Sequence record: KP869112
DNA: 64,000 bases
Direction: 5' to 3' (one strand)
Source of the DNA: Escherichia coli O157 typing phage 14
Shown one piece after another: positions 16,526 to 30,480 of the stretch. Numbering within the stretch: the stretch's first letter is position 1; the number at the start of each line of letters is the position of its first letter. The notes beneath the pieces are model-generated. The model was not told the origin of the DNA. It ran no database searches and saw nothing but the letters and a program-made list of their open reading frames with translations. Made by a program: the position numbers and the translations under genes.

Positions 16526-18049
16526 CACACAATTAGCTACCCGGCTAAAGTGCTGGGAGCACCTATAACACATCTTTCAACTAAATTTCCTACCACCACA
16601 ATCACTTACCTCCCACACATGACTGTTTGCTTGTTTAGTGAGCAGTCATGCCTTGACATTCTTGCCTATCCTGATAAAATTAAGTTCTTCTCTTTTCTTT
16701 TACCGAGTAATTCGGGTTTTCTGTTCTCTTCGGTTTGAAGGGGTATGGAGATACACCTGAGTGAACAGGGTGAACAACCGAACCATTGGCTATGGCATTA
16801 GCATGGCGAAGCGGACGGGTGACGAAAGAGGGGCCGGAGGACACCAGTCACTGCCATATGATATATAGGTGATAACCTGAAGAGTCTGAATAAGTGTTTA
16901 AGTACCAGTCAGAGGAAAAGGTGAATGGTAGCCGAAGGGGGAGGGGGGTTTCTTGTATCTTTAATTTGTATATTATGTATACACTTGTAAACCAACACCA
17001 TCTGAATTTGCTTACCACACAAAGCGGATAGAGACAAATATTACCTATTAAACTTGAATTATTTATAGAAAATACCACAACACCACTTAAGTCTTTGATT
17101 TTACACATAAATCCTACAGATATTCACCCTCCATATTTAACATACTTGTAACATATCTATACCCAACCTGTCTGATCAACTCACCCAACTACATCCTCCA
17201 TATTTCCCCTGTCTGTACTACCCCTGCCCAGCCGGGAGTCCCGTCATATCTGGCTTTCCAGCAAATATCACACCCACAAATATCATTGCCTGAAGAGGGT
17301 TTCATCCCATAATACATGCCTTACCTGAAGAGCGCTTCATACACCACGTAAATTTTTTAATTGACCTGCAATTTTCCCGTCATGACCCCCTGCCCCGCCA
17401 GAGAGGTTGACTTTTCCCACACAGACCTGAAGAGCCAGCCAGAAATATCTGAACAGGTCCAGTTATACCACGATTTTGACCTGACCGACAGGAGTGCCTC
17501 CCTGTCAGGAGCCGGTAGCGACTGGAGTGCTGCCAGGCGGACGAAATGGGAATACTTCTCATTCTTATAATAATTCTCAAATATCGAGGCAGTGAGGCAA
17601 ATTAATAGGTGAGGCCGTTCACACAGTGGCACAACATTTGCAACCTATCTTGTGGGGTGAATGAGAATACCTATCATTGTGAGAATAGTTATCATTACGG
17701 GCAATTTAACATAATACCCATTATGCGCACCACTGGCGATACATACAGGGGTTGATAACATGAGTTACTGTTTACGCACATAACAATTATATTTCTTACT
17801 ATTTGTGTGGGATATAGTTAGCAGCCGATAGATTAGATATTGACCTGTAGACTTCCAACCGTCTAGACGTCTAAACGCCCACACAACAAGGCTTATACAT
17901 ACATCACTGAATGTAAACAGGACCGCAAAAATGCTACCATACAAGCTTGTAAATTTTTCATGCAGCACTTGACAAAGAGGAGGAAAACTTGTCTGACACA
18001 CTGGGCACAACATAACATACTGCAGCACAATATGACACAATAACGACTG

Positions 18050-20572: not shown

Positions 20573-20700
20573 CGGTTTTTATAGTTCTTATATGACAGGC
20601 ACCCCCGGTGATTGTCTCCCCCCGTCGCCAGGTGCCTGCCGTGGAATAAGTATAACAAAAAACAGGACCATTGCAAGCCCTGTTTTGTAGTTTATAAATA

Positions 20701-21413: not shown

Positions 21414-21638
21414 CTATGCTGTACGCTCAACTATAACAACGGTTTGGGGGATCTCACCTTCCACCACTAGTAAGGCCTTTTTCTGCGTGATGGATATCTT
21501 TACCCGTTGCAGCGTGGCGGTGAAGTCTTTCATTTCGTCACGTGGTGTTTTAGTGCAATGCCAGATCTCAGGCTTACCTATTTGCAAGCCGCGTAAAAAT
21601 TCTGTTTTACCTGTCTTATTCGTGATCATTTTATTCAC
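21414..21638 (-). CDS. hypothetical protein (74 aa)
   Basis: ORF in minus array. Confidence 0.45.
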   Translation of the reverse strand: MNKMITNKTGKTEFLRGLQIGKPEIWHCTKTPRDEMKDFTATLQRVKISITQKKALLVVEGEIPQTVVIVERTA

Positions 21639-22086
21639 CTTAACCGATACCGTGGGAAGATAGGATCATGTTAGCCATAGTTGCAACCACTCCAACCGAT
21701 AATGCCAGGCCAACTACTACAACCGTGAAAATTTTCTCTAACATGATTCTACCCTCATTAATGGGCGTTGCCTTATTGCCCCGCCCTACGAAATACATTC
21801 TACCCGATTTGTAATTGTTGTCAAACTATTTTAACGATAATCATCATATGCTTTATTTACCTGGCGAATATAACATTCAAAAGCCAGATCAATAGATTTA
21901 TATTCACGAATATACTCACCATAGGAAACCACATACATTTCTATAGCTTCCTCATATGCGAGGAGAATAGAATCTAAGCCTACGATCTCAGTCTTTGCAA
22001 TAATAGCCATGATTTTTATCCTCTTTGTGGTTGGTGGGGCTTGTTGCCCCCCTTTGATTTATATATTACAGTCTTATATGGTCATG

Positions 22087-23538: not shown

Positions 23539-23573
23539 TCCTTGTTAACTGCGTGGTATTTTAACAGGGTTTA

Positions 23574-23620
23574 AATTTACTTTATTGATGGCCCTGGAGT
23601 CAAGGCCATCTAAAAATAAA
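23574..23620 (-). promoter_or_regulatory. conserved promoter-operator element (copy 1 of 3)
   Basis: TTGACT-N18-TAAATT on minus strand with 24-bp hyphenated palindrome GATGGCCCTGGAGTCAAGGCCATC over the -35. Confidence 0.5.
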
Positions 23621-23622
23621 TT

Positions 23623-23823
23623 TTACAGGCCTACAATCTCTTTGATTCGTTTAACCGCTGCCTCAGCGCCTTGGGGGTAAAAATTATGGTAACCAATCAC
23701 GCGAGTGATACTAATCGCCGTTTGATGATCTTCATAGTCGCCCTTGAAGATTTCTTGACCGTCAATCAGCACGGCAATTTTTTCTTCTTTTTTGAAGTTA
23801 ATAACGCGGATATTGTTGCTCAT
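23623..23823 (-). CDS. hypothetical protein (66 aa)
   Basis: Leader motif AGGAGAAACAAA-ATG. Confidence 0.45.
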   Translation of the reverse strand: MSNNIRVINFKKEEKIAVLIDGQEIFKGDYEDHQTAISITRVIGYHNFYPQGAEAAVKRIKEIVGL

Positions 23824-24078
23824 TTTGTTTCTCCTTTCTGGTTTTTGTGTTGGTGGGGATGTTTCCCCGTTGATTGTTATTATCCATATTGCGGACCAGA
23901 TTGCAACACCCTGGAAGAAAAATTTTTTGAAAAAGTTAAGCCCCCCATGATCGGGGGCGTTATCAGTTACTTATAGCAATAAAGTACATTCCTACCCCTA
24001 ACAATATTTCAAGGGCGATGATCTCAAGCCATACCATAACCTGGCGCACCTTATCGGTGCGGGGCTTATCCTTGGTTG

Positions 24079-24324
24079 TCATCGTCTCCCCCTTTCCTCC
24101 TGGTAGTAGTGACGTAGTTTACAATGGCCCCCAGGAGTACCATCACCACGCACATCATAAGAAAAATTATCTCTGTCGTTGTTCGATCCATTGTTATAAA
24201 ATTCCTCAAGATCAGGCCTGAAAATAAAGCGTTCGTTATTGAATCCATCACGCCAGGCGGCTGGCTTCAAATCTTCATTAAAGGGATTAATTAACGTGGT
24301 ATTATTTAAACGGCTGGCCCACAT
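24079..24324 (-). CDS. hypothetical Asn/Asp-rich protein
   Basis: Internal ATG with GAGAGG RBS chosen; ORF track 24079..24342. Confidence 0.35.
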   Translation of the reverse strand: MWASRLNNTTLINPFNEDLKPAAWRDGFNNERFIFRPDLEEFYNNGSNNDRDNFSYDVRGDGTPGGHCKLRHYYQEERGRR

Positions 24325-24673
24325 ATTTTCTATTCCTCTCAAATAGGCGATCCGCCTCAGTTAAACATATCTCATGGGCTTGATCTCTGGTTTTAGCCTC
24401 ATCAAAAACTTGTTGTGCCAGGCTGCAGCGCAAGGAGACCGGAAGATCACTATAATAGGCGTTAACAAAAGTTTGGGCGTCATACAGGTCGGAAAATACT
24501 TTACCCTTCTTATTATTATCCTTGTCAACAATTGCAAGGATAACTAGTACAATGGTTGCAACCACCCCCAAGAAAATAGATATAATAAACCATAAAAAGG
24601 CGGATCTACCCATCTTGCCAGCTATCCAGGCGTTGAACAAGGCAACTACTACAGCCAAAATAATAAATTCCAT
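24302..24673 (-). CDS. small membrane protein (2 TM helices)
   Basis: Start at internal ATG (MEFIILAVV) with AAGAGG RBS; ORF track 24302..24811. Confidence 0.45.
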   Translation of the reverse strand: MEFIILAVVVALFNAWIAGKMGRSAFLWFIISIFLGVVATIVLVILAIVDKDNNKKGKVFSDLYDAQTFVNAYYSDLPVSLRCSLAQQVFDEAKTRDQAHEICLTEADRLFERNRKYVGQPFK

Positions 24674-24740
24674 TCTATGTACCTCTTTTGCAGTTCTGTT
24701 TAACAATAAGGCGGCAAATATGCCGCCGCCTGTTACCTGA

Positions 24741-25121
24741 TTAAAAACTATCGCCGTAAATCTTCCCGCTTTCTGCCCACACCACCACGCGGGGCATACT
24801 ATCCCACACATCTTGTTTTAGATTGAGCGCGTGCAATTCTTCGATGGTGCCCATACCGGGCACGGGCTGATTGTATACTGCAAAACGACCACCCGCATAA
24901 TCATAGGCTAGAATTAAATCACACTGGATCATCTTTTTGATCATGGCATTAAGCATGGCGTTAGCCGCATACTGATCACGTTTTAAAGGCAACTCTTTGA
25001 TTAGTTTGCGATAGTTTTCGATATGGTCGCACACTGTTTCACGCGGAAGATCTTTCATATCCTCGCGAAAGGTAACCAGGTTAAACATAACGGTGTAAAT
25101 AGCTTTGGTAGTGTTTTTCAT
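24741..25121 (-). CDS. hypothetical protein (126 aa)
   Basis: Leader motif upstream. Confidence 0.5.
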   Translation of the reverse strand: MKNTTKAIYTVMFNLVTFREDMKDLPRETVCDHIENYRKLIKELPLKRDQYAANAMLNAMIKKMIQCDLILAYDYAGGRFAVYNQPVPGMGTIEELHALNLKQDVWDSMPRVVVWAESGKIYGDSF

Positions 25122-25210
25122 GATGTTTTCCTCTTTGTTTTGTGTGGGGGCAAACGTCTTGCCCCTTGAGTTTTAATATAGCAGGTTTTTAGGTTATTGC
25201 AACACTTTAT

Positions 25211-25834
25211 TTATGAAAAAGTCATCTCGCCATATTCATCCACATCAAACCGCCAATCATTGGCCTCGATAAGGCCGATCAGGTTTTCGGTGGTGAATTG
25301 TTCAAGATAGGCTTGCTCCAGGTCTACGTAAACCTTGCGGGATAACTCCCGTACCGTCTCGGTGATCAGCTCTTCCAGCTCTTCAACTTTATCCTCTTGC
25401 TTGGTGGTCAGGTCTAGCCAATTGGTATCGATGCACCCGCCTATTGTGTTTTCGTGATGATAATGGCTAAACGGGATACGTTCAACGCTGGCTGACAGTT
25501 CGCCATCATGCATTGTGCCGAACAAGTGTCTAATTAAGCGGAATTTTGTAAGCGCTTTAACCTTACGCAAGAATTTTTCTAAGTTTACATTTTCAGCGCT
25601 AATTGATGCGCCGTCGCCTTGACACCAAAAGCCGGACCAATGTATTTCGGTATCTTCAAGGCCATACTCTGGAAAAACATATTCTTTATAGTACTCAATT
25701 ACACTTTCTGCAAAAAAGTTATCCCCGCTGTGTTCTTCTCTTTCGCGGACCATTTCAACAGCTTTTTCTTTTTGTTCGTCGGTCAGCACGTCGAAAGATA
25801 AATTGTAACCTGTAGTAATGTTAACGGTGGTCAT
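25211..25834 (-). CDS. hypothetical acidic protein (207 aa)
   Basis: ORF with leader motif; Glu/Asp-rich. Confidence 0.5.
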   Translation of the reverse strand: MTTVNITTGYNLSFDVLTDEQKEKAVEMVREREEHSGDNFFAESVIEYYKEYVFPEYGLEDTEIHWSGFWCQGDGASISAENVNLEKFLRKVKALTKFRLIRHLFGTMHDGELSASVERIPFSHYHHENTIGGCIDTNWLDLTTKQEDKVEELEELITETVRELSRKVYVDLEQAYLEQFTTENLIGLIEANDWRFDVDEYGEMTFS

Positions 25835-26142
25835 GATATTTTCTCCTATTTTCTTTGTTAGTGGCGGGNNNNNNNNNNNNNNNNNNNNNNNNNNNNNNNN
25901 NNNNNNNNNNNNNNNNNNNNNNNNNNNNNNNNNNNNNNNNNNNNNNNNNNNNNNNNNNNNNNNNNNNNNNNNNNNNNNNNNNNNNNNNNNNNNNNNNNNN
26001 NNNNNNNNNNNNNNNNNNNNNNNNNNNNNNNNNNNNNNNNNNNNNNNNNNNNNNNNNNNNNNNNNNNNNNNNNNNNNNNNNNNNNNNNNNNNNNNNNNNN
26101 NNNNNNNNNNNNNNNNNNNNNNNNNNNNNNNNNNNNNNNNNN

Positions 26143-26295
26143 TTTAATCACTGGACGGCCTTGCCAGTGCCCTTGGAGAAAGCGCGCTTTAACTTTATCG
26201 GTGGAACTATCACGCCACCAAACGGCTTTATTATTGCAGTAGTAAAAATTATTCAGGACAACATCGACTTTATCAAAATTTTTTAATTTACGCAT
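26143..26295 (-). CDS. hypothetical protein, 3' end lost in assembly gap
   Basis: ORF runs into N-run 25862-26142; leader motif upstream. Confidence 0.35.
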
Positions 26296-26506
26296 GGCGT
26301 TTACTCCTTCCTTCTTGCTTTGATGTGGTTAGTATATCCGGACTATCCCAAGGTGTCAAGCTTTAAATAGAATCACTGTCAATAATATTTTTAACGCCAT
26401 AAAACGGCCCTAGACGCTGTTTTCAGGTTAAGAAAGGGGATTGCATAGGTAGGGGCCTTTATGGCGCTTGTAGGGCCAACCAGGGGCGCTATCGGCGGGA
26501 TAGAAA

Positions 26507-26532
26507 TAAAAAGCCCCGCACAATGGCGGGGC
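26507..26532 (-). terminator. rho-independent terminator (minus strand)
   Basis: GCCCCGC-CATTGTG-GCGGGGC hairpin followed by TTTTTATTTC on minus strand. Confidence 0.7.
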
Positions 26533-26540
26533 GTTGGTTG

Positions 26541-26738
26541 CTATTTGTCTTTGTGGCGGTATCGTTCCGCCTGTCGTTCACGTTCCAAAAGCAGGCCCGG
26601 TAATTTGCGATCATAGTGATTTCTCCAGATCTTCCCGAACCTTTTCGGTTTATTCGGTTTATTGTTACGCTGGCGGCGTTCCGGCAGCTCTTCGGAATCG
26701 TGGGGGCGCTTTACAATTTTTTCGAAATTAATTTTCAT
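26541..26738 (-). CDS. small basic protein (65 aa)
   Basis: Internal ATG with AAGGGGGCG RBS; Arg/Lys-rich; ORF track 26541..26762. Confidence 0.45.
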   Translation of the reverse strand: MKINFEKIVKRPHDSEELPERRQRNNKPNKPKRFGKIWRNHYDRKLPGLLLERERQAERYRHKDK

Positions 26739-27081
26739 AAACGCCCCCTTTACTGATCTCAATATTTGCCTGAATCGCCCGGATACGACGTTTTATAGTC
26801 TCCTGATCCTTGCAATCATATCCCCAAAAGTCTACGATTTTTGCGCCGCCAGCCTTTAAGCGGTATAATGTTTCTTGCATCTTGTAAGCTGGGATCGGTC
26901 TCGGTGTTACCTGGTCCCCTTTCTCATCCTTGTACTTGATAATGTAGTCTTCATTGTCGTTGAATACCCAAAATGGGTATTCTGTAAGCGCGTTGCTCTC
27001 TTTTTCGTTTTTGGATTGGATCTTGTTTACAATTAAAGCCGTAGCAATAGCGCCAATAATAAAACTTGCCCCGCTGATCAT
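26728..27081 (-). CDS. hypothetical protein with N-terminal TM helix
   Basis: Internal ATG with AAGGAG RBS; ORF track 26728..27099. Confidence 0.45.
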   Translation of the reverse strand: MISGASFIIGAIATALIVNKIQSKNEKESNALTEYPFWVFNDNEDYIIKYKDEKGDQVTPRPIPAYKMQETLYRLKAGGAKIVDFWGYDCKDQETIKRRIRAIQANIEISKGGVYEN

Positions 27082-27157
27082 GTTACTTTCTCCTTTCATT
27101 GTGCTGATAAACTATCTTTATAGATGGCCCTGCTACCAGGACCACCGAAAAAACAGT

Positions 27158-27403
27158 TTATTTGACGATACCGACAAAACAGATCCCGCCTTCCCCTATA
27201 TAGGCAACATCGGTAATTTTATAATTTGTCAAGATCCGCGTGTTCAGATCATTAATAAAATCGGTCATCGCGTTGGTGTAGTTGTCTTCCGTGTCTAAGG
27301 CATAATCCCAGGTGTAAACCTTTTTACGTCCGAAGCCTTTTACCATGATACGGGCGCTTTTGGTGTTGGTAGGGGCATAATATTTGGTGATTAGTGCTGC
27401 CAT
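27158..27403 (-). CDS. hypothetical protein (81 aa)
   Basis: Downstream of conserved promoter-operator element. Confidence 0.5.
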   Translation of the reverse strand: MAALITKYYAPTNTKSARIMVKGFGRKKVYTWDYALDTEDNYTNAMTDFINDLNTRILTNYKITDVAYIGEGGICFVGIVK

Positions 27404-27444
27404 GGTTTTAACTCCTCTGAATTAGTTCAGTGTTAACAGTATAA

Positions 27445-27490
27445 AGTTTACTTTATTGATGGCCCTGAAGTCAAGGCCATCTAAAAATAA
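27445..27490 (-). promoter_or_regulatory. conserved promoter-operator element (copy 2 of 3)
   Basis: 46 bp identical to 28055-28100; TTGACT-N18-TAAACT with palindrome GATGGCCCTGAAGTCAAGGCCATC. Confidence 0.5.
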
Positions 27491-27492
27491 TC

Positions 27493-27834
27493 TTACTCGT
27501 TTTCTTCCAGCTCTGCAAGCTCTTCTTTTGCTTCTTCTAACTCTGTCTGTAGTTCCTGGTATTCTTCATCGTCCTCAATATCCAGGCTGTCGATGTAGTC
27601 GCTAAATCCGCAGCGGTAAGCGATAGGATCTAGCTCCTCGAGGATACGCGACGGAAGAAAAGAAATGTTTCCGATCATAATTTCGCCGTAGATCTCGTCT
27701 AACCATTCATCATAGTTTTCGTCGTACTTGTCCTCGTCGATTTCAAAGTTATCGATCTTATTCTCAAGGTCTGCGATCTGTTTTTTCAGCGCGGCGATCT
27801 GCATGGCTTTTTCTGCGGCGGTCATAGTAGTCAT
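27493..27834 (-). CDS. hypothetical acidic coiled-coil protein (113 aa)
   Basis: Leader motif upstream. Confidence 0.5.
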   Translation of the reverse strand: MTTMTAAEKAMQIAALKKQIADLENKIDNFEIDEDKYDENYDEWLDEIYGEIMIGNISFLPSRILEELDPIAYRCGFSDYIDSLDIEDDEEYQELQTELEEAKEELAELEENE

Positions 27835-28054
27835 GGTGTTTTTCTCCTTTTGTGTGTTCTGGGAAGTTTTCCCGTCTATGTGTTTAGTATACTGATCTAA
27901 GTTAGCTTGTCAATTAAAAGTTTAAGAAAAATTTTGCGATACCGTTGGCGCTACCCATCAACATTTGCGCCAGGATGTAACCAATGATGCAAACGATAAT
28001 AGTTACCTTTGTGTGCTGGCGTGTAGTACTCATCTTTAAGCCCCCTTTCCGCTC

Positions 28055-28100
28055 AACTGTGGTTAGTTTACTTTATTGATGGCCCTGAAGTCAAGGCCAT
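28055..28100 (-). promoter_or_regulatory. conserved promoter-operator element (copy 3 of 3)
   Basis: Identical to 27445-27490; a 36-codon hydrophobic ORF follows on minus strand (about 27925-28033). Confidence 0.5.
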
Positions 28101-28112
28101 CTAAAAATAAAC

Positions 28113-28517
28113 TCAGTAAGTTTTCAGTACTTTACCGTCCAACCTGTCAAGCTGGATCTCGATAGCTGCAGAAAACCTATTGTAAACCACATCGCCCATA
28201 GAATCCAACCAGTCTATGACATTATACACTTGCTCTTTGTTCTTGCAGGTCCGGATCCGTTTCATGATGTAAGCCGGATCAATATTGGTACTCTCGTTGG
28301 TGTTCCCCTGTACCTGGTTTGCCGTATTAGTTACATCTTTAATGGCCTTTACCACCACCTGGAATGGCTTTAAGGTGCCTTTTGCGTTCATCTCACGCGC
28401 TTTTGCGGCGCGGTTGTTATATGTTACACAACGGCGGCAAATGTTGACCAAATGCATATCAATAATTTTTTCATCGTTTGCCAGTTCGTTCATGATGCGG
28501 CGTACGTTCTTATTCAT
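28113..28517 (-). CDS. hypothetical protein (134 aa)
   Basis: Leader motif with hairpin GGCGGGAATGTTTCCCGCC. Confidence 0.5.
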   Translation of the reverse strand: MNKNVRRIMNELANDEKIIDMHLVNICRRCVTYNNRAAKAREMNAKGTLKPFQVVVKAIKDVTNTANQVQGNTNESTNIDPAYIMKRIRTCKNKEQVYNVIDWLDSMGDVVYNRFSAAIEIQLDRLDGKVLKTY

Positions 28518-28600
28518 GATCTTTTTCCTTTGTGTTGGCGGGAAACATTCCCGCCTTTTGTGCCTAGTTTACTTTAATTTTGCAGCGTGTCAATAATTTT

Positions 28601-29261: not shown

Positions 29262-29946
29262 AAATTTATCCTCTTTACTGGTTAGTGCGGTGTTGTTCAC
29301 CTTGTAGGGTAATAATACCATGATTAACCTTGTTGTCAACGACTATTTTAAATTATTTTTATGATAGAATCCACCTGCCGCCCCCGCCAGGTTAACCACC
29401 ATTTTTTCGTACTCTTCTTTATGTTCCAACGCTCCCGCCATAGCCTTTTCAACCAGGGCGATAGCCTCAGCGTCATTAATCGCTACATTTTCCAGGGGAT
29501 CATATTACCTTTCATTTTTGTACCTCCTCTCCAGTTGTTGCCTACCCTATAGCATAGCCCTACCAGGTTTGCAAGCTTTCACTCTCCCCTGCCAGGCTGG
29601 CCCCGCCAGGTCCTGGCAGTGGGCGCACCTGGTTATAATTTTTTTTTTGAAAGGTGTTGACAGCGGCCCCGCCAGGTGGCACAATATACCTATCGAAAGG
29701 ACGGCAGGCACCGGTGACGGGGGAGACAACCACCGGGGATGGGCGCTGCATAAAATGAGAACGGTTATCATTATCATTTAAAAATTTATGCAAAAAATCC
29801 TTGCTTTCTTTGTCCTGTGTGATACTATAATAACAAGCCGGGGCAACAGGGGCCGGGAGACAATCACCGGGCCTGCCCGTTATTCTGCAAACGAGAATGA
29901 TTATCATTCAAAATTCTAAATGAGAACTCCTCACATTTAATAAATT

Positions 29947-29964
29947 TAATTAGCATGCTAATTA
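29947..29964. repeat. 18-bp perfect palindrome TAATTAGCATGCTAATTA
   Basis: Read directly; lies in AT-rich intergenic region. Confidence 0.7.
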
Positions 29965-30019
29965 CCCTCCGTAACAATTTCCTATAAAACAGTATCCCAT
30001 AAAATATTCCCATATAGAA

Positions 30020-30480
30020 ATTTTAAAAATCCATTTCTGAAAACGAAAAATCGATTTCGTCCCCAAAAATTTCAGGTCGAGATCCGGAACGATTTCCAGA
30101 AAATCCGATTCAGAAAACGAAAAACAGATCGAGTACTGAGAAATTTATCGAGAAAAATTTTCAGAAAATCCAAGCCCTGAAATGAAAAGTAGATCGAGTA
30201 CCTGGAAAGCTGCACCGCAACTTCAAGATAGTGGTTAGATTGTTACCATAGAAGGTCAAGGGTAAGTGGAGGAAGTTCTGGTAGAGGGAGGTTAGCATGT
30301 GTGGGAAATCTATAATGGTGGCCTGGAATATGGTGCAAACGATAGGATGAGTTATTCAGCTTGTCGCGCCTACTCTGAAAAATCCATTTTAGTTTTCGAT
30401 CCATTTTCTGATTTTCTAAGAATTTTAAAATATCCAGCCTGGTGAAATATCAAAAGGAGGAAATCCATTTTAGAAATCCC
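30020..30480. repeat. cluster of degenerate direct repeats (GAAAATCC / CTGAAAACGAAAAA / AGATCGAGTAC)
   Basis: At least seven related copies in 460 bp of non-coding DNA. Confidence 0.55.

Follow-up and report, generated by a model that had tools for sequence, protein, structure and literature searches.

What kind of signal is the 46-nt block that recurs between small early genes of this phage, and what does it do there? The window, i.e., the whole 64,000-nt stretch of DNA analysed here, comes from a Vequintavirus, an rV5-like coliphage. In a preliminary description, three copies of the block were taken for promoter-operator elements, in which a 24-bp hyphenated palindrome would be the shared site of a regulator controlling three small early genes; a cis-acting RNA hairpin was mentioned in parentheses. 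Spelled out, the operator reading would have a dimeric regulator from phage or host bind the palindrome as double-stranded DNA, occlude the -35 hexamer and co-regulate three early promoters. The explanation leaned toward here, as probably but by no means certainly correct, is that the blocks are intercistronic cassettes of the rV5-like early gene cluster resembling the promoter-early stem-loops (PeSLs) of other phages, with an RNA processing or stability hairpin as the core, a possible overlapping promoter, and sequence that serves as recombination homology.

Copies of the element and their gene context

The palindrome GATGGCC-N10-GGCCATC is indeed present three times, at the upper-stem positions listed below (with 1 mismatch in element 1), and none of 100 shuffles matched it. 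Of the coordinates first given, those of the third element need correction: it lies at 28065-28110, 10 nt from the earlier 28055-28100. The cores of elements 2 and 3 are identical at 46 of 46 nt, as had been described, with a single difference over 49 nt. The three copies are not the full set: a search for more found a fourth, diverged member (65% identity, structure as in elements 1-3). A covariance model recognizes only these four members in the 64-kb window, all within one 4.6-kb stretch, and BLAST places the element three times per genome.

23574-23619, minus strand: element 1, 46-nt conserved core (full hairpin approximately 23573-23623; upper stem and loop 23587-23610; lower-stem arms 23613-23623 and 23573-23583), with the ORF66 stop codon (23623-23625) on one side and the ORF99 start (23529) on the other
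27445-27490, minus strand: element 2, 46-nt core (upper stem and loop 27458-27481; lower-stem arms 27484-27494 and 27444-27454), with the ORF113 stop codon (27493-27495) at the stem base and the ORF81 start at 27403; -35-like TTGACT at 27474-27469 in the apical loop/stem and -10-like TAAACT within the lower stem's 3' arm at 27450-27445
28065-28110, minus strand: element 3, 46-nt core (upper stem and loop 28078-28101), between the ORF134 stop codon (28113-28115) and the start of a 39-aa ORF (28033)
27107-27161, minus strand: copy 4, the diverged member (core 27110-27155), in which a 2x3 internal loop separates the 13-bp lower stem from a 10-bp upper stem (GGUGGUCCUG/CAGGGCCAUC) that is closed by a GUAG tetraloop (27123-27146), between the ORF81 stop codon and the ORF123 start (27099), without TTGAC

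All four copies lie on the minus strand between a stop codon and the next ribosome-binding site; each starts 2-3 nt past the stop codon, and the next start codon follows 31-45 nt on. This is a PeSL-type layout, with the upstream stop codon in the AT-rich 5' part and a Shine-Dalgarno sequence and start codon at the 3' end. The operons holding the copies are headed by canonical promoters. Elements 1-3 each precede a small gene of the early arm, which is driven by sigma70, in agreement with the preliminary description.

Tight conservation amid divergent flanks, which had also been claimed, is evident in 48 copies from 17 genomes, in which the 46-nt block is invariant except at 5 sites; variation within it falls on the unpaired positions 18, 32, 33 and 44 or on the pair 9-55, and nowhere else. 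This invariance bears on the simplest reading, that the elements have no function and are duplicates left over when a cassette was duplicated, persisting by hitch-hiking. The small size of the family (four copies in a single 4.6-kb stretch) and the fact that the identical elements 2 and 3 flank a cassette would fit such an origin. Conservation of the block while its flanks diverge, the presence of compensatory changes (see below), retention of the element in a different phage subfamily and the existence of homologues in distant phages make it extremely unlikely.

Fold and covariation of the conserved block

All of the conserved block, and not the 24-bp palindrome alone, takes part in a longer hairpin, of which the palindrome forms the upper portion. 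Read as coding strand, the 46 nt fold into an interrupted hairpin of ~20-23 bp. Its AU-rich lower stem begins at the upstream stop codon and contains the proposed -10 hexamer; above it follow a 2x3 internal loop, a GC-rich upper stem of 10 bp and a tetraloop. Folding energies are -21 to -28 kcal/mol on the coding strand (z -5.4 to -7.6; copy 4, -28.2 kcal/mol, z -7.6), compared with -13 to -16 on the other strand. The covariance model likewise gives ~80 bits on the coding strand and ~40 on the other (element 1, 79.1 bits on the minus strand versus 41.5 on the plus strand; element 2, 79.8; element 3, 80.7; copy 4, 73.1). G·U pairs render the structure strand-specific, and a U·G wobble is conserved.

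Pairing is maintained through sequence change. Among 40 distinct copies from 18 genomes, 94.8% of cells are paired, compared with 36-56% when the partners are slid, and double changes occur in four pairs (29 cells), a level reached by 0 of 500 shuffles. In the same copies the upper helix is 99.8% paired, all changes there being wobble-compatible. At pair 9-55, element 1 has A-U where elements 2 and 3 have G-C, and the difference between TAAACT and TAAATT is matched by a compensating change 46 nt upstream; in copy 4, seven further pairs differ and pairing is kept in all of them. Rfam has no match at gathering score in the whole window, with only sub-threshold chance matches within 22.5-29 kb.

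These features have to be weighed against the operator originally proposed. The perfect 7+7 dyad around a central TTGACT that three copies possess, the invariance of TTGAC and both arms in 48 copies, and a -10-like hexamer at 18-nt spacing together with an AT-rich upstream tract are all consistent with regulator binding to DNA. However, the dyad is broken in copy 4, whose arms (GGTGGTCCTG/CAGGGCCATC) lack DNA symmetry at 3 of 10 positions, yet pair as RNA through G·U. The AT-rich flanks covary as a stem, which is not required of an operator, and fold and model scores are strongly strand-asymmetric. Half-site centres 17 bp apart, or ~1.6 helical turns, would be awkward for a simple dimer; none of the 10 neighbouring ORFs has a recognisable DNA-binding domain; and homologues elsewhere have wholly changed arm sequences with the hairpin kept. 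A shared operator is thus improbable. The strand-specific fold with G·U pairs, the compensatory changes and the homologues that keep the hairpin without TTGAC instead favour the alternative that had stood in parentheses, in which the selected core of the cassettes would be a coding-strand RNA hairpin.

Possible transcription through and from the elements

In the record of phage Murica, element 1 and copy 4 are annotated as intrinsic (Rho-independent) terminators, which would close each single-gene unit. A stable GC-rich hairpin directly after the stop codon and the position of elements 1-3, each closing a promoter-gene unit in moron fashion, are in line with this annotation, as is the published report that PeSL stem-loops lowered downstream reporter expression (PMC2839356). 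Nevertheless, no U-tract lies 3' of the hairpin, either on the coding strand (AAUAAAGUAAAC) or on the other strand (UAAAAAUAA); the U-run sits 5' of it. A scan for hairpins with T-runs omits the elements; genuine terminators of this region, at 26532-26513, 24731-24709, 23958-23940 and 22828-22799, have canonical T-runs, and the elements are missing from the ARNold/MFOLD list of the rV5 authors. Since a U-tract is absent from both strands, the elements do not qualify as intrinsic terminators, and an exclusively terminating role, against which the preliminary description had set its own proposal, is very unlikely. Phage morons are similar as promoter-gene-hairpin units, but end in true terminators.

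Whether the elements also start transcription is a separate question. The minus-strand sequence TTGACT-N18-TAAACT/TAAATT is present in elements 1-3 as first reported, but is only a marginal promoter match (9/12, spacer of 18 nt). Over 19.5 kb around it, shuffles yield ~40 matches of this 9/12 type, and ~20 minus-strand sites score 10-12/12. The hexamers are missing from copy 4 and from the homologues in other phages, and the promoter list of the rV5 authors does not contain the elements. PhagePromoter marks elements 1 and 2 as promoters in the Gotham record, and in three copies an AT-rich tract lies upstream of the hexamers. Promoter activity of elements 1-3 is still plausible from their sequence, because all 48 copies keep TTGAC, whereas the two loop bases after it are free to vary. 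Two canonical promoters head messages that end in elements:

27886-27913, minus strand: equivalent of rV5 P192, a canonical sigma70 promoter (TTGACA-16-TATACT, 11/12) heading ORF113, with the message ending in element 2
28566-28593, minus strand: equivalent of rV5 P194, a canonical sigma70-like promoter (TTGACA-16-TAAACT, 10/12) heading ORF134, with the message ending in element 3

In the PeSL-like explanation, early operons would be read from canonical sigma70 promoters, and each 46-nt block would fold in the RNA. Transcription would pass through the hairpin, as read-through is expected of a hairpin without a U-tract. The hairpin might then act post-transcriptionally on the upstream cistron, either as a T7-type RNase III processing signal or as a barrier to 3'-exonucleases; the message would be segmented and stabilised, and neighbouring single-gene units insulated from each other. 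Elements 1-3 might in addition fire as weak-to-moderate sigma70 promoters for the downstream gene, in a composite promoter/stem-loop logic like that of PeSLs, because in these three copies an AT-rich tract is followed, in the same DNA, by TTGAC(N)-N18-TAAAYT.

The possible role of RNase III is suggested by architecture. The RNase III sites of T7 early mRNA, R0.3, R0.5, R1, R1.1 and R1.3 (positions after Dunn and Studier, 1983), fold to the same plan as the elements when the folds are set side by side. Both are non-terminating coding-strand hairpins in gaps between early genes, often adjoining promoters, and in both, ~19-23 bp overall are divided between a lower stem and an upper stem of ~9-12 bp that ends in a small loop, the interruption being asymmetric and on the 3' side. 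Unlike the T7 signals, the elements have a lower stem that is almost purely A-U and conserved in sequence, and no sequence similarity between the elements and the T7 RNase III sites was found. Promoter-coupled terminators of bacteria, in which the DNA of an RNA stem-loop doubles as the downstream -35 (Fletcher et al., bioRxiv 10.64898/2026.08.19.745784), provide a parallel for the promoter part, as stem-loop DNA is the -35 of the next promoter and adjacent transcription units are coupled; those, however, are working terminators in which the T-tract acts as spacer before the -10, whereas here the T-tract is missing.

Cassette exchange and relatives in other phages

The repeats also coincide with boundaries of gene content, and two segments are relevant:

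27491-28110, minus strand: 620-bp cassette containing element 3, the 39-aa ORF, promoter P192 and ORF113, bounded by elements 3 and 2
27441-27914, minus strand: portable module from the P192 -35 through ORF113 to element 2, with 93.5% identity to Justusliebigvirus KKE7M

The cassette is present in most genomes; the site is empty in 5 of 113 records, and all others break exactly at the element edge. A single chimeric element is left where the cassette is absent (ECP26, ECP32, phiWec189, ime, A147 and one IMG/VR contig), and chimeric single-element junctions are seen in ECP26, ime and L013. The comparison shows that the near-identical repeats serve, as DNA, as portable homology, recombination between elements 2 and 3 removing or inserting the 620-bp cassette. 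The homology with KKE7M is limited by the outer element edge and the promoter -35 hexamer; to judge from this alignment, the promoter-ORF-element module has moved to another phage subfamily. In rV5_ev146, neither of the two deletions has the elements as its bounds, and therefore the elements are not the sole recombination substrates. Elements 2 and 3 have the same loop in 6 of 12 genomes, which is only suggestive of concerted evolution. Overall, the elements mark points of gain, loss and swapping of small early genes. The preliminary description had overlooked a role of the repeats as recombination joints.

Exact boundaries of this kind could also mean that the elements are recombination or mobility signals at the DNA level, i.e., single-stranded or cruciform hairpins for a recombinase or nuclease, like attC or REP, or plain homology patches, with any RNA or promoter effect incidental. 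The indel bounded exactly by elements 2 and 3, the KKE7M module ending at an element edge, the loop variant often common to both elements within a genome, and hairpins around the ORF81 homologue in the unrelated phage slur01 are compatible with this idea. Homologous recombination between 46-bp repeats, however, accounts for the indel without a dedicated enzyme, and no integrase, RAYT or HUH-type gene is found among the neighbours. The consistent coding-strand orientation, the placement from stop codon to ribosome-binding site and the conserved U·G wobble argue for RNA, and the element was not found in E. coli genomes. A primary function as DNA signal is accordingly rather unlikely. REP sequences and intercistronic stabiliser hairpins (e.g., malE-malF) are likewise repeated extragenic palindromes within operons, able to shield the mRNA upstream of them and to serve as substrates for recombination; the present elements differ in their absence from E. 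coli genomes and in having no RAYT-type partner.

PeSLs, known from the T4-type phages RB49/phi1, T4/PST and KVP40/nt-1, combine sigma70-like -35/-10 hexamers at ~17-nt spacing with a stable stem-loop able to overlap the -35 box (Arbiol et al., 2010, PMC2839356; Comeau et al., 2014, PMC4122927). As in PeSLs, intergenic cassettes lie among small ORFs of a plastic early region, with a stop codon in an AT-rich tract followed by a Shine-Dalgarno sequence and a start codon; a stable stem-loop lies with candidate -35/-10-like hexamers (9/12 in three copies here); and neighbouring copies bound indels between close relatives, modular shuffling being proposed for both. The elements differ in occurring in a Vequintavirus rather than a T4-type phage, in number (4 copies per ~64 kb versus dozens per T4-type genome), and in structure, namely an interrupted helix of ~20 bp whose 5' arm is rich in U and whose 3' arm is rich in A, and which lacks a U-tract. 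The "-10" is part of the stem here, and copy 4 and the distant homologues have no promoter hexamers. In the nt-1 PeSL region, nothing matches the covariance model (best score 10.5 bits), and the hairpins are canonical A-tract/hairpin/U-tract terminators. The best reading is that the elements are PeSL-like, but not homologous to published PeSLs.

In a marine T4-like contig and in others there are homologues that share the lower stem, differ in the upper stem and have no TTGAC, although the identical flanks of the metagenomic ones are partly imposed by the search pattern. In the Seuratvirus slur01, hairpins of the same plan lie on both sides of the ORF81 homologue, with weak matches (E 0.004-0.065 in a 6.5-kb search). 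A broader, decidedly tentative and rather doubtful view is that the elements represent an undescribed family of intercistronic RNA hairpins, non-terminating and spread across lineages, in which the AU-rich lower stem is conserved and carries the invariant U·G, and the upper stem is free. In the unrelated rV5-like, Justusliebigvirus, Seuratvirus and marine T4-like phages, such hairpins would mark off single-gene cassettes. They would unite an RNA processing or stability signal with a portable exchange joint, analogous to the attC sites of integrons but based on homology.

As candidates for therapy and biocontrol, rV5-like phages are in wide use, and their ~100 small early genes are mostly, and their regulatory punctuation wholly, uncharacterised. 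If the elements are processing or stability signals with overlapping promoters, this would explain how single-gene units are expressed independently inside long early operons, and phage engineering would gain compact natural parts that combine insulator and promoter. The exact cassette and module boundaries at the elements extend PeSL-style modular shuffling beyond T4-type phages, and point to a concrete mechanism, open to testing, by which accessory genes turn over.

Copies and surroundings of the repeat

The window contains three occurrences of the 24-nt hyphenated palindrome GATGGCC-N10-GGCCATC, which was matched in none of 100 shuffles. A 46-nt minus-strand block is conserved around each occurrence. 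The preliminary description had reported three such copies, the last two identical. The blocks of elements 2 and 3 are indeed identical, and all three copies stand, but its third coordinates (28055-28100) are 10 nt too low, and a repeat search of the window reveals a fourth, diverged copy that had been overlooked (copy 4). The genome-wide search for more copies that it called for, performed with a covariance model over the 64 kb, finds four members including copy 4, and none further. The repeat observation is real, bar one coordinate error and one overlooked copy. The copies and their gene order (small early minus-strand ORFs) are as follows.

23574-23619, minus strand: element 1 block; palindrome at 23587-23610 with one mismatch; ORF66, element 1, ORF99
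27110-27158: copy 4, 65% identity; ORF81, copy 4, ORF123
27445-27490, minus strand: element 2 block; palindrome at 27458-27481; ORF113, element 2, ORF81
28065-28110, minus strand: element 3 block; palindrome at 28078-28101; ORF134, element 3, ORF39

Genes between ~17 and 56 kb lie on the minus strand. Every element begins 2-3 nt past the stop codon of a small ORF and ends 31-45 nt ahead of the next start codon. The neighbouring ORFs all belong to PHROGs of unknown function, and no significant Pfam domain is found in any ORF flanking the four elements. A host origin is rejected by the lack of any match among 5,426 complete E. coli genomes, as is a known RNA family by the lack of any Rfam match. 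The RefSeq record is blank at the elements and the promoter and terminator tables of the rV5 paper do not include them; software has labelled them 'terminator' in the Murica record and, via PhagePromoter, 'promoter' in the Gotham record. The literature search yielded nothing usable on Vequintavirus transcript maps or earlier accounts of the motif.

Over 100 genomes of Vequintavirus (rV5-like) coliphages match this region of the window at 93-95% identity. Seventeen 'Campylobacter phage' records (e.g., MG065659 and MG065647), labelled as Campylobacter jejuni phages, match E. coli rV5-like phages at 93-100% identity throughout it, which suggests that their submission series contains mislabelled or contaminating coliphage sequences.

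Other repeats are present in the same region. A GC-rich motif, GGCAGGCACC-N-GGNGACGGGGGGAGACAAYCACCGGGG, has one minus-strand copy and two plus-strand copies ~9 kb off; the hairpins that they form are of moderate stability (z -1.3 to -2.8), and no Rfam family matches. A short GC-rich motif, GCCCCGCCAGGT, has at least five copies in intergenic DNA of the early region that is AT-rich otherwise, with a cluster at 29.4-29.7 kb beside the former motif. Three imperfect direct repeats (~65-74 nt, 61-73% identity) sit in an ORF-poor stretch at ~29920-30240, which may be the 'non-coding' box of the published rV5 map.

~20590-20650, minus strand: GGCAGGCACC-N-GGNGACGGGGGGAGACAAYCACCGGGG motif
~29700-29745, plus strand: GGCAGGCACC-N-GGNGACGGGGGGAGACAAYCACCGGGG motif
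~29835-29885, plus strand: GGCAGGCACC-N-GGNGACGGGGGGAGACAAYCACCGGGG motif
22363, 29381, 29600 and 29666, plus strand: GCCCCGCCAGGT, with a variant at 17392
30008-30208: three imperfect direct repeats

Coding-strand hairpin and the terminator and operator readings

On the coding (minus) strand, the RNA of each element folds into one extended hairpin that takes in all of the conserved block. Its lower stem is AU-rich and 7-13 bp long; the 5' arm of this stem starts at the stop codon, and the proposed -10 hexamer makes up the 3' arm. Above it come an internal loop (2x3), an upper stem of 10 bp (GAUGGCCUUG/CAGGGCCAUC) and an ACUY tetraloop. Fold energies are -21 to -28 kcal/mol on this strand (z -5.4 to -7.6) and -13 to -16 kcal/mol on the opposite strand. 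An MFE scan in sliding 64-nt segments across the window was uninformative (277 segments at <= -19 kcal/mol) and was superseded by a covariance model built from the alignment of the copies. Under this model the four window copies reach 73-81 bits on the minus strand versus 32-42 bits on the plus strand.

The copies collected number 67, from 18 distinct genomes and the window. In the 48 main-class copies, positions 11-56 are near-invariant while the flanks vary freely, bearing out the conserved core amid divergent flanks that had been described; the exceptions are the unpaired positions 18, 32, 33 and 44, one change at 36, and the pair partner 55. At pair 9-55, element 1 has A-U where elements 2 and 3 have G-C, so that a change 46 nt upstream compensates the TAAATT/TAAACT difference. 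Seven further pairs distinguish copy 4 from the other copies, and all of these are still paired. In a set of 40 distinct sequences, pairing holds in 94.8% of cells, versus 36-56% with the partners slid, and four pairs change on both sides (29 cells), a result reached by none of 500 shuffles. The upper helix is 99.8% paired in the same set, its four variable pairs changing to wobble pairs only. G·U pairs, which occupy ~100 of 840 cells and include the invariant U14·G50, would be mismatches on the other strand.

The hairpin has its U-run on the 5' side and its A-run on the 3' side. The elements cannot be canonical intrinsic terminators because neither strand has a U-run after the hairpin, and a hairpin-plus-T-run scan does not list them. 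Genuine terminators of this type close operons at the following positions.

26532-26513: hairpin-plus-T-run terminator
24731-24709: hairpin-plus-T-run terminator
23958-23940: hairpin-plus-T-run terminator
22828-22799: hairpin-plus-T-run terminator

A binding site for a shared regulator had been put forward to account for the conservation. A double-stranded DNA operator of this kind is unlikely, because in copy 4 the dyad symmetry of the DNA is lost at three of 10 arm positions while RNA pairing is kept, the AT-rich flanks covary as a stem, and no regulator-like gene is among the neighbours. The other possibility raised at the time, a cis-acting RNA hairpin, is supported by the strand asymmetry of folding and model scores and by the compensatory changes.

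Promoter sequences and cassette exchange

The minus-strand TTGACT-N18-TAAACT/TAAATT promoter of the preliminary description is present as sequence, but its match is marginal (9/12, with a long spacer). About 40 matches at this level are expected from shuffles of the 19.5-kb region, in which ~20 minus-strand sites score 10-12/12. Two canonical sigma70 promoters on the rV5 authors' list precede ORF134 and ORF113.

28593-28566, minus strand: P194, upstream of ORF134
27913-27886, minus strand: P192, upstream of ORF113

Promoter activity of the elements stays plausible because TTGAC is invariant in the main class (48 copies; of the two loop bases after it, the first takes all four values and the second takes two), the conserved block has the extent that a promoter footprint would cover, and TAAACT is also accepted as the -10 of P194. 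Against such activity, the 18-nt 'spacer' does not vary, a constancy that a promoter alone would not demand. The -35 is missing from copy 4; TTGAC is also missing from the homologues in other phages, whose next RBS is so near that a start site would fall within it. The hairpin is thus concluded to be the family-wide feature, to which the promoter hexamers would be at most a lineage-specific addition.

A BLAST search with a 61-nt element query matched 120 phage records, nearly all at three places and the exceptions at one or two. ECP26, ime and one IMG/VR contig carry a single element, flanked upstream as element 3 is and downstream as element 2 is, and are without the intervening 620 bp (element, ORF39, P192 and ORF113). 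With the empty-site junction as query, five of 113 records match end to end and the rest break exactly at the element edge. In six of 12 genomes, elements 2 and 3 have the same loop variant, no more than a hint of gene conversion between them. From these patterns, the repeats are best described as cassette boundaries.

KKE7M (Justusliebigvirus), of the different subfamily Stephanstirmvirinae, shares window 27441-27914 at 93.5% identity, a block with one end at the outer edge of element 2 and the other at the P192 -35 hexamer. Four small blocks (21416-21834, 21829-22022, 24755-25088 and 27441-27914; 74-93% identity) are scattered and reordered in KKE7M. Several of their ends fall on promoter -35 hexamers, which indicates that single early genes have been exchanged between the subfamilies in mosaic fashion.

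Two deletions, of ~6 kb and ~0.5 kb, distinguish the phage rV5_ev146 in this region (breakpoints 20613/26591 and 28021/28524). Both had been expected to be element-mediated, but they are bounded by 14-18-nt microhomologies elsewhere, in repeated 5'-UTR/RBS-like sequence, so that the elements do not account for every rearrangement; the 6-kb deletion begins within the first GGCAGGCACC-N-GGNGACGGGGGGAGACAAYCACCGGGG copy.

Relatives in other phages and comparison with known systems

In slur01 (Seuratvirus), an unrelated siphovirus, the covariance model finds hairpins of the same plan at 511-574 and 833-894, either side of an ORF81 homologue (47% identity), with weak scores of 22 and 17 bits; the stop-codon, AU-stem and GC-stem plan is kept, and the upper-stem sequences are unrelated. 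Stronger matches (34-39 bits) occur in two IMG/VR contigs, one with two copies. A first IMG/VR flank-pattern scan gave three loci, of which L006 is a real homologue by the covariance model and L007 and L008 are chance matches. A looser pattern gave more than 120 loci, mostly chance matches in AT-rich viruses; the model retained only L006, L101, L047 and L035, with weaker matches for L035 and L047. These homologues share the lower stem (UUUAUUUUUAG...CAAUAAAGUAAAY) and the base of the upper stem, the identity of the flanks being partly imposed by the search pattern; the apical parts are unrelated. Compensatory changes are seen at U22-A41 (to G·U) and C25-G38 (to A-U). One homologue-bearing contig is judged, from weak tail-fibre and baseplate matches, to be a marine T4-like myovirus. 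A search of IMG/VR and metagenomes anchored on the ORF81 protein found six loci only, all close Vequintavirus relatives.

The promoter-early stem-loops (PeSLs) of T4-type phages (Arbiol et al., 2010, PMC2839356; Comeau et al., 2014, PMC4122927) resemble the elements in having an AT-rich stop-codon region, an SD and start codon, putative sigma70-like hexamers (in the elements a 9/12 match, absent from copy 4), a stem-loop able to overlap the -35, and associated indels. PeSLs number dozens of copies, whereas the elements number four and reside in a non-T4 phage. The PeSLs of nt-1 are canonical A-tract/hairpin/U-tract terminators followed by a -10. Because these hairpins are canonical terminators and the covariance model reaches at best 10.5 bits over the nt-1 PeSL region, the elements are not homologous to published PeSLs. 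An A/G...C/T stem consensus had suggested KVP40/nt-1-type PeSLs for the L006, L101 and L035 hairpins, which inspection of nt-1 refuted, its PeSLs being true terminators of opposite polarity. In bacterial promoter-coupled terminators, stem-loop DNA also serves as the -35, but a T-tract is needed (Fletcher et al., bioRxiv 10.64898/2026.08.19.745784).

When the early RNase III signals of T7 are folded from its reference sequence, they show a similar overall plan: a 9-12 bp upper stem, a 3' asymmetric interruption and a lower stem, ~19-23 bp in total, between early cistrons. Because of this likeness, RNase III processing or 3' stabilisation would be the most economical mechanism for the elements.

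Overall, the elements are best described as a PeSL-like variant in Vequintavirus, with a non-terminating coding-strand RNA hairpin as the probable core. The principle is already known; the structure, its polarity and its relatives in other lineages are previously undescribed.
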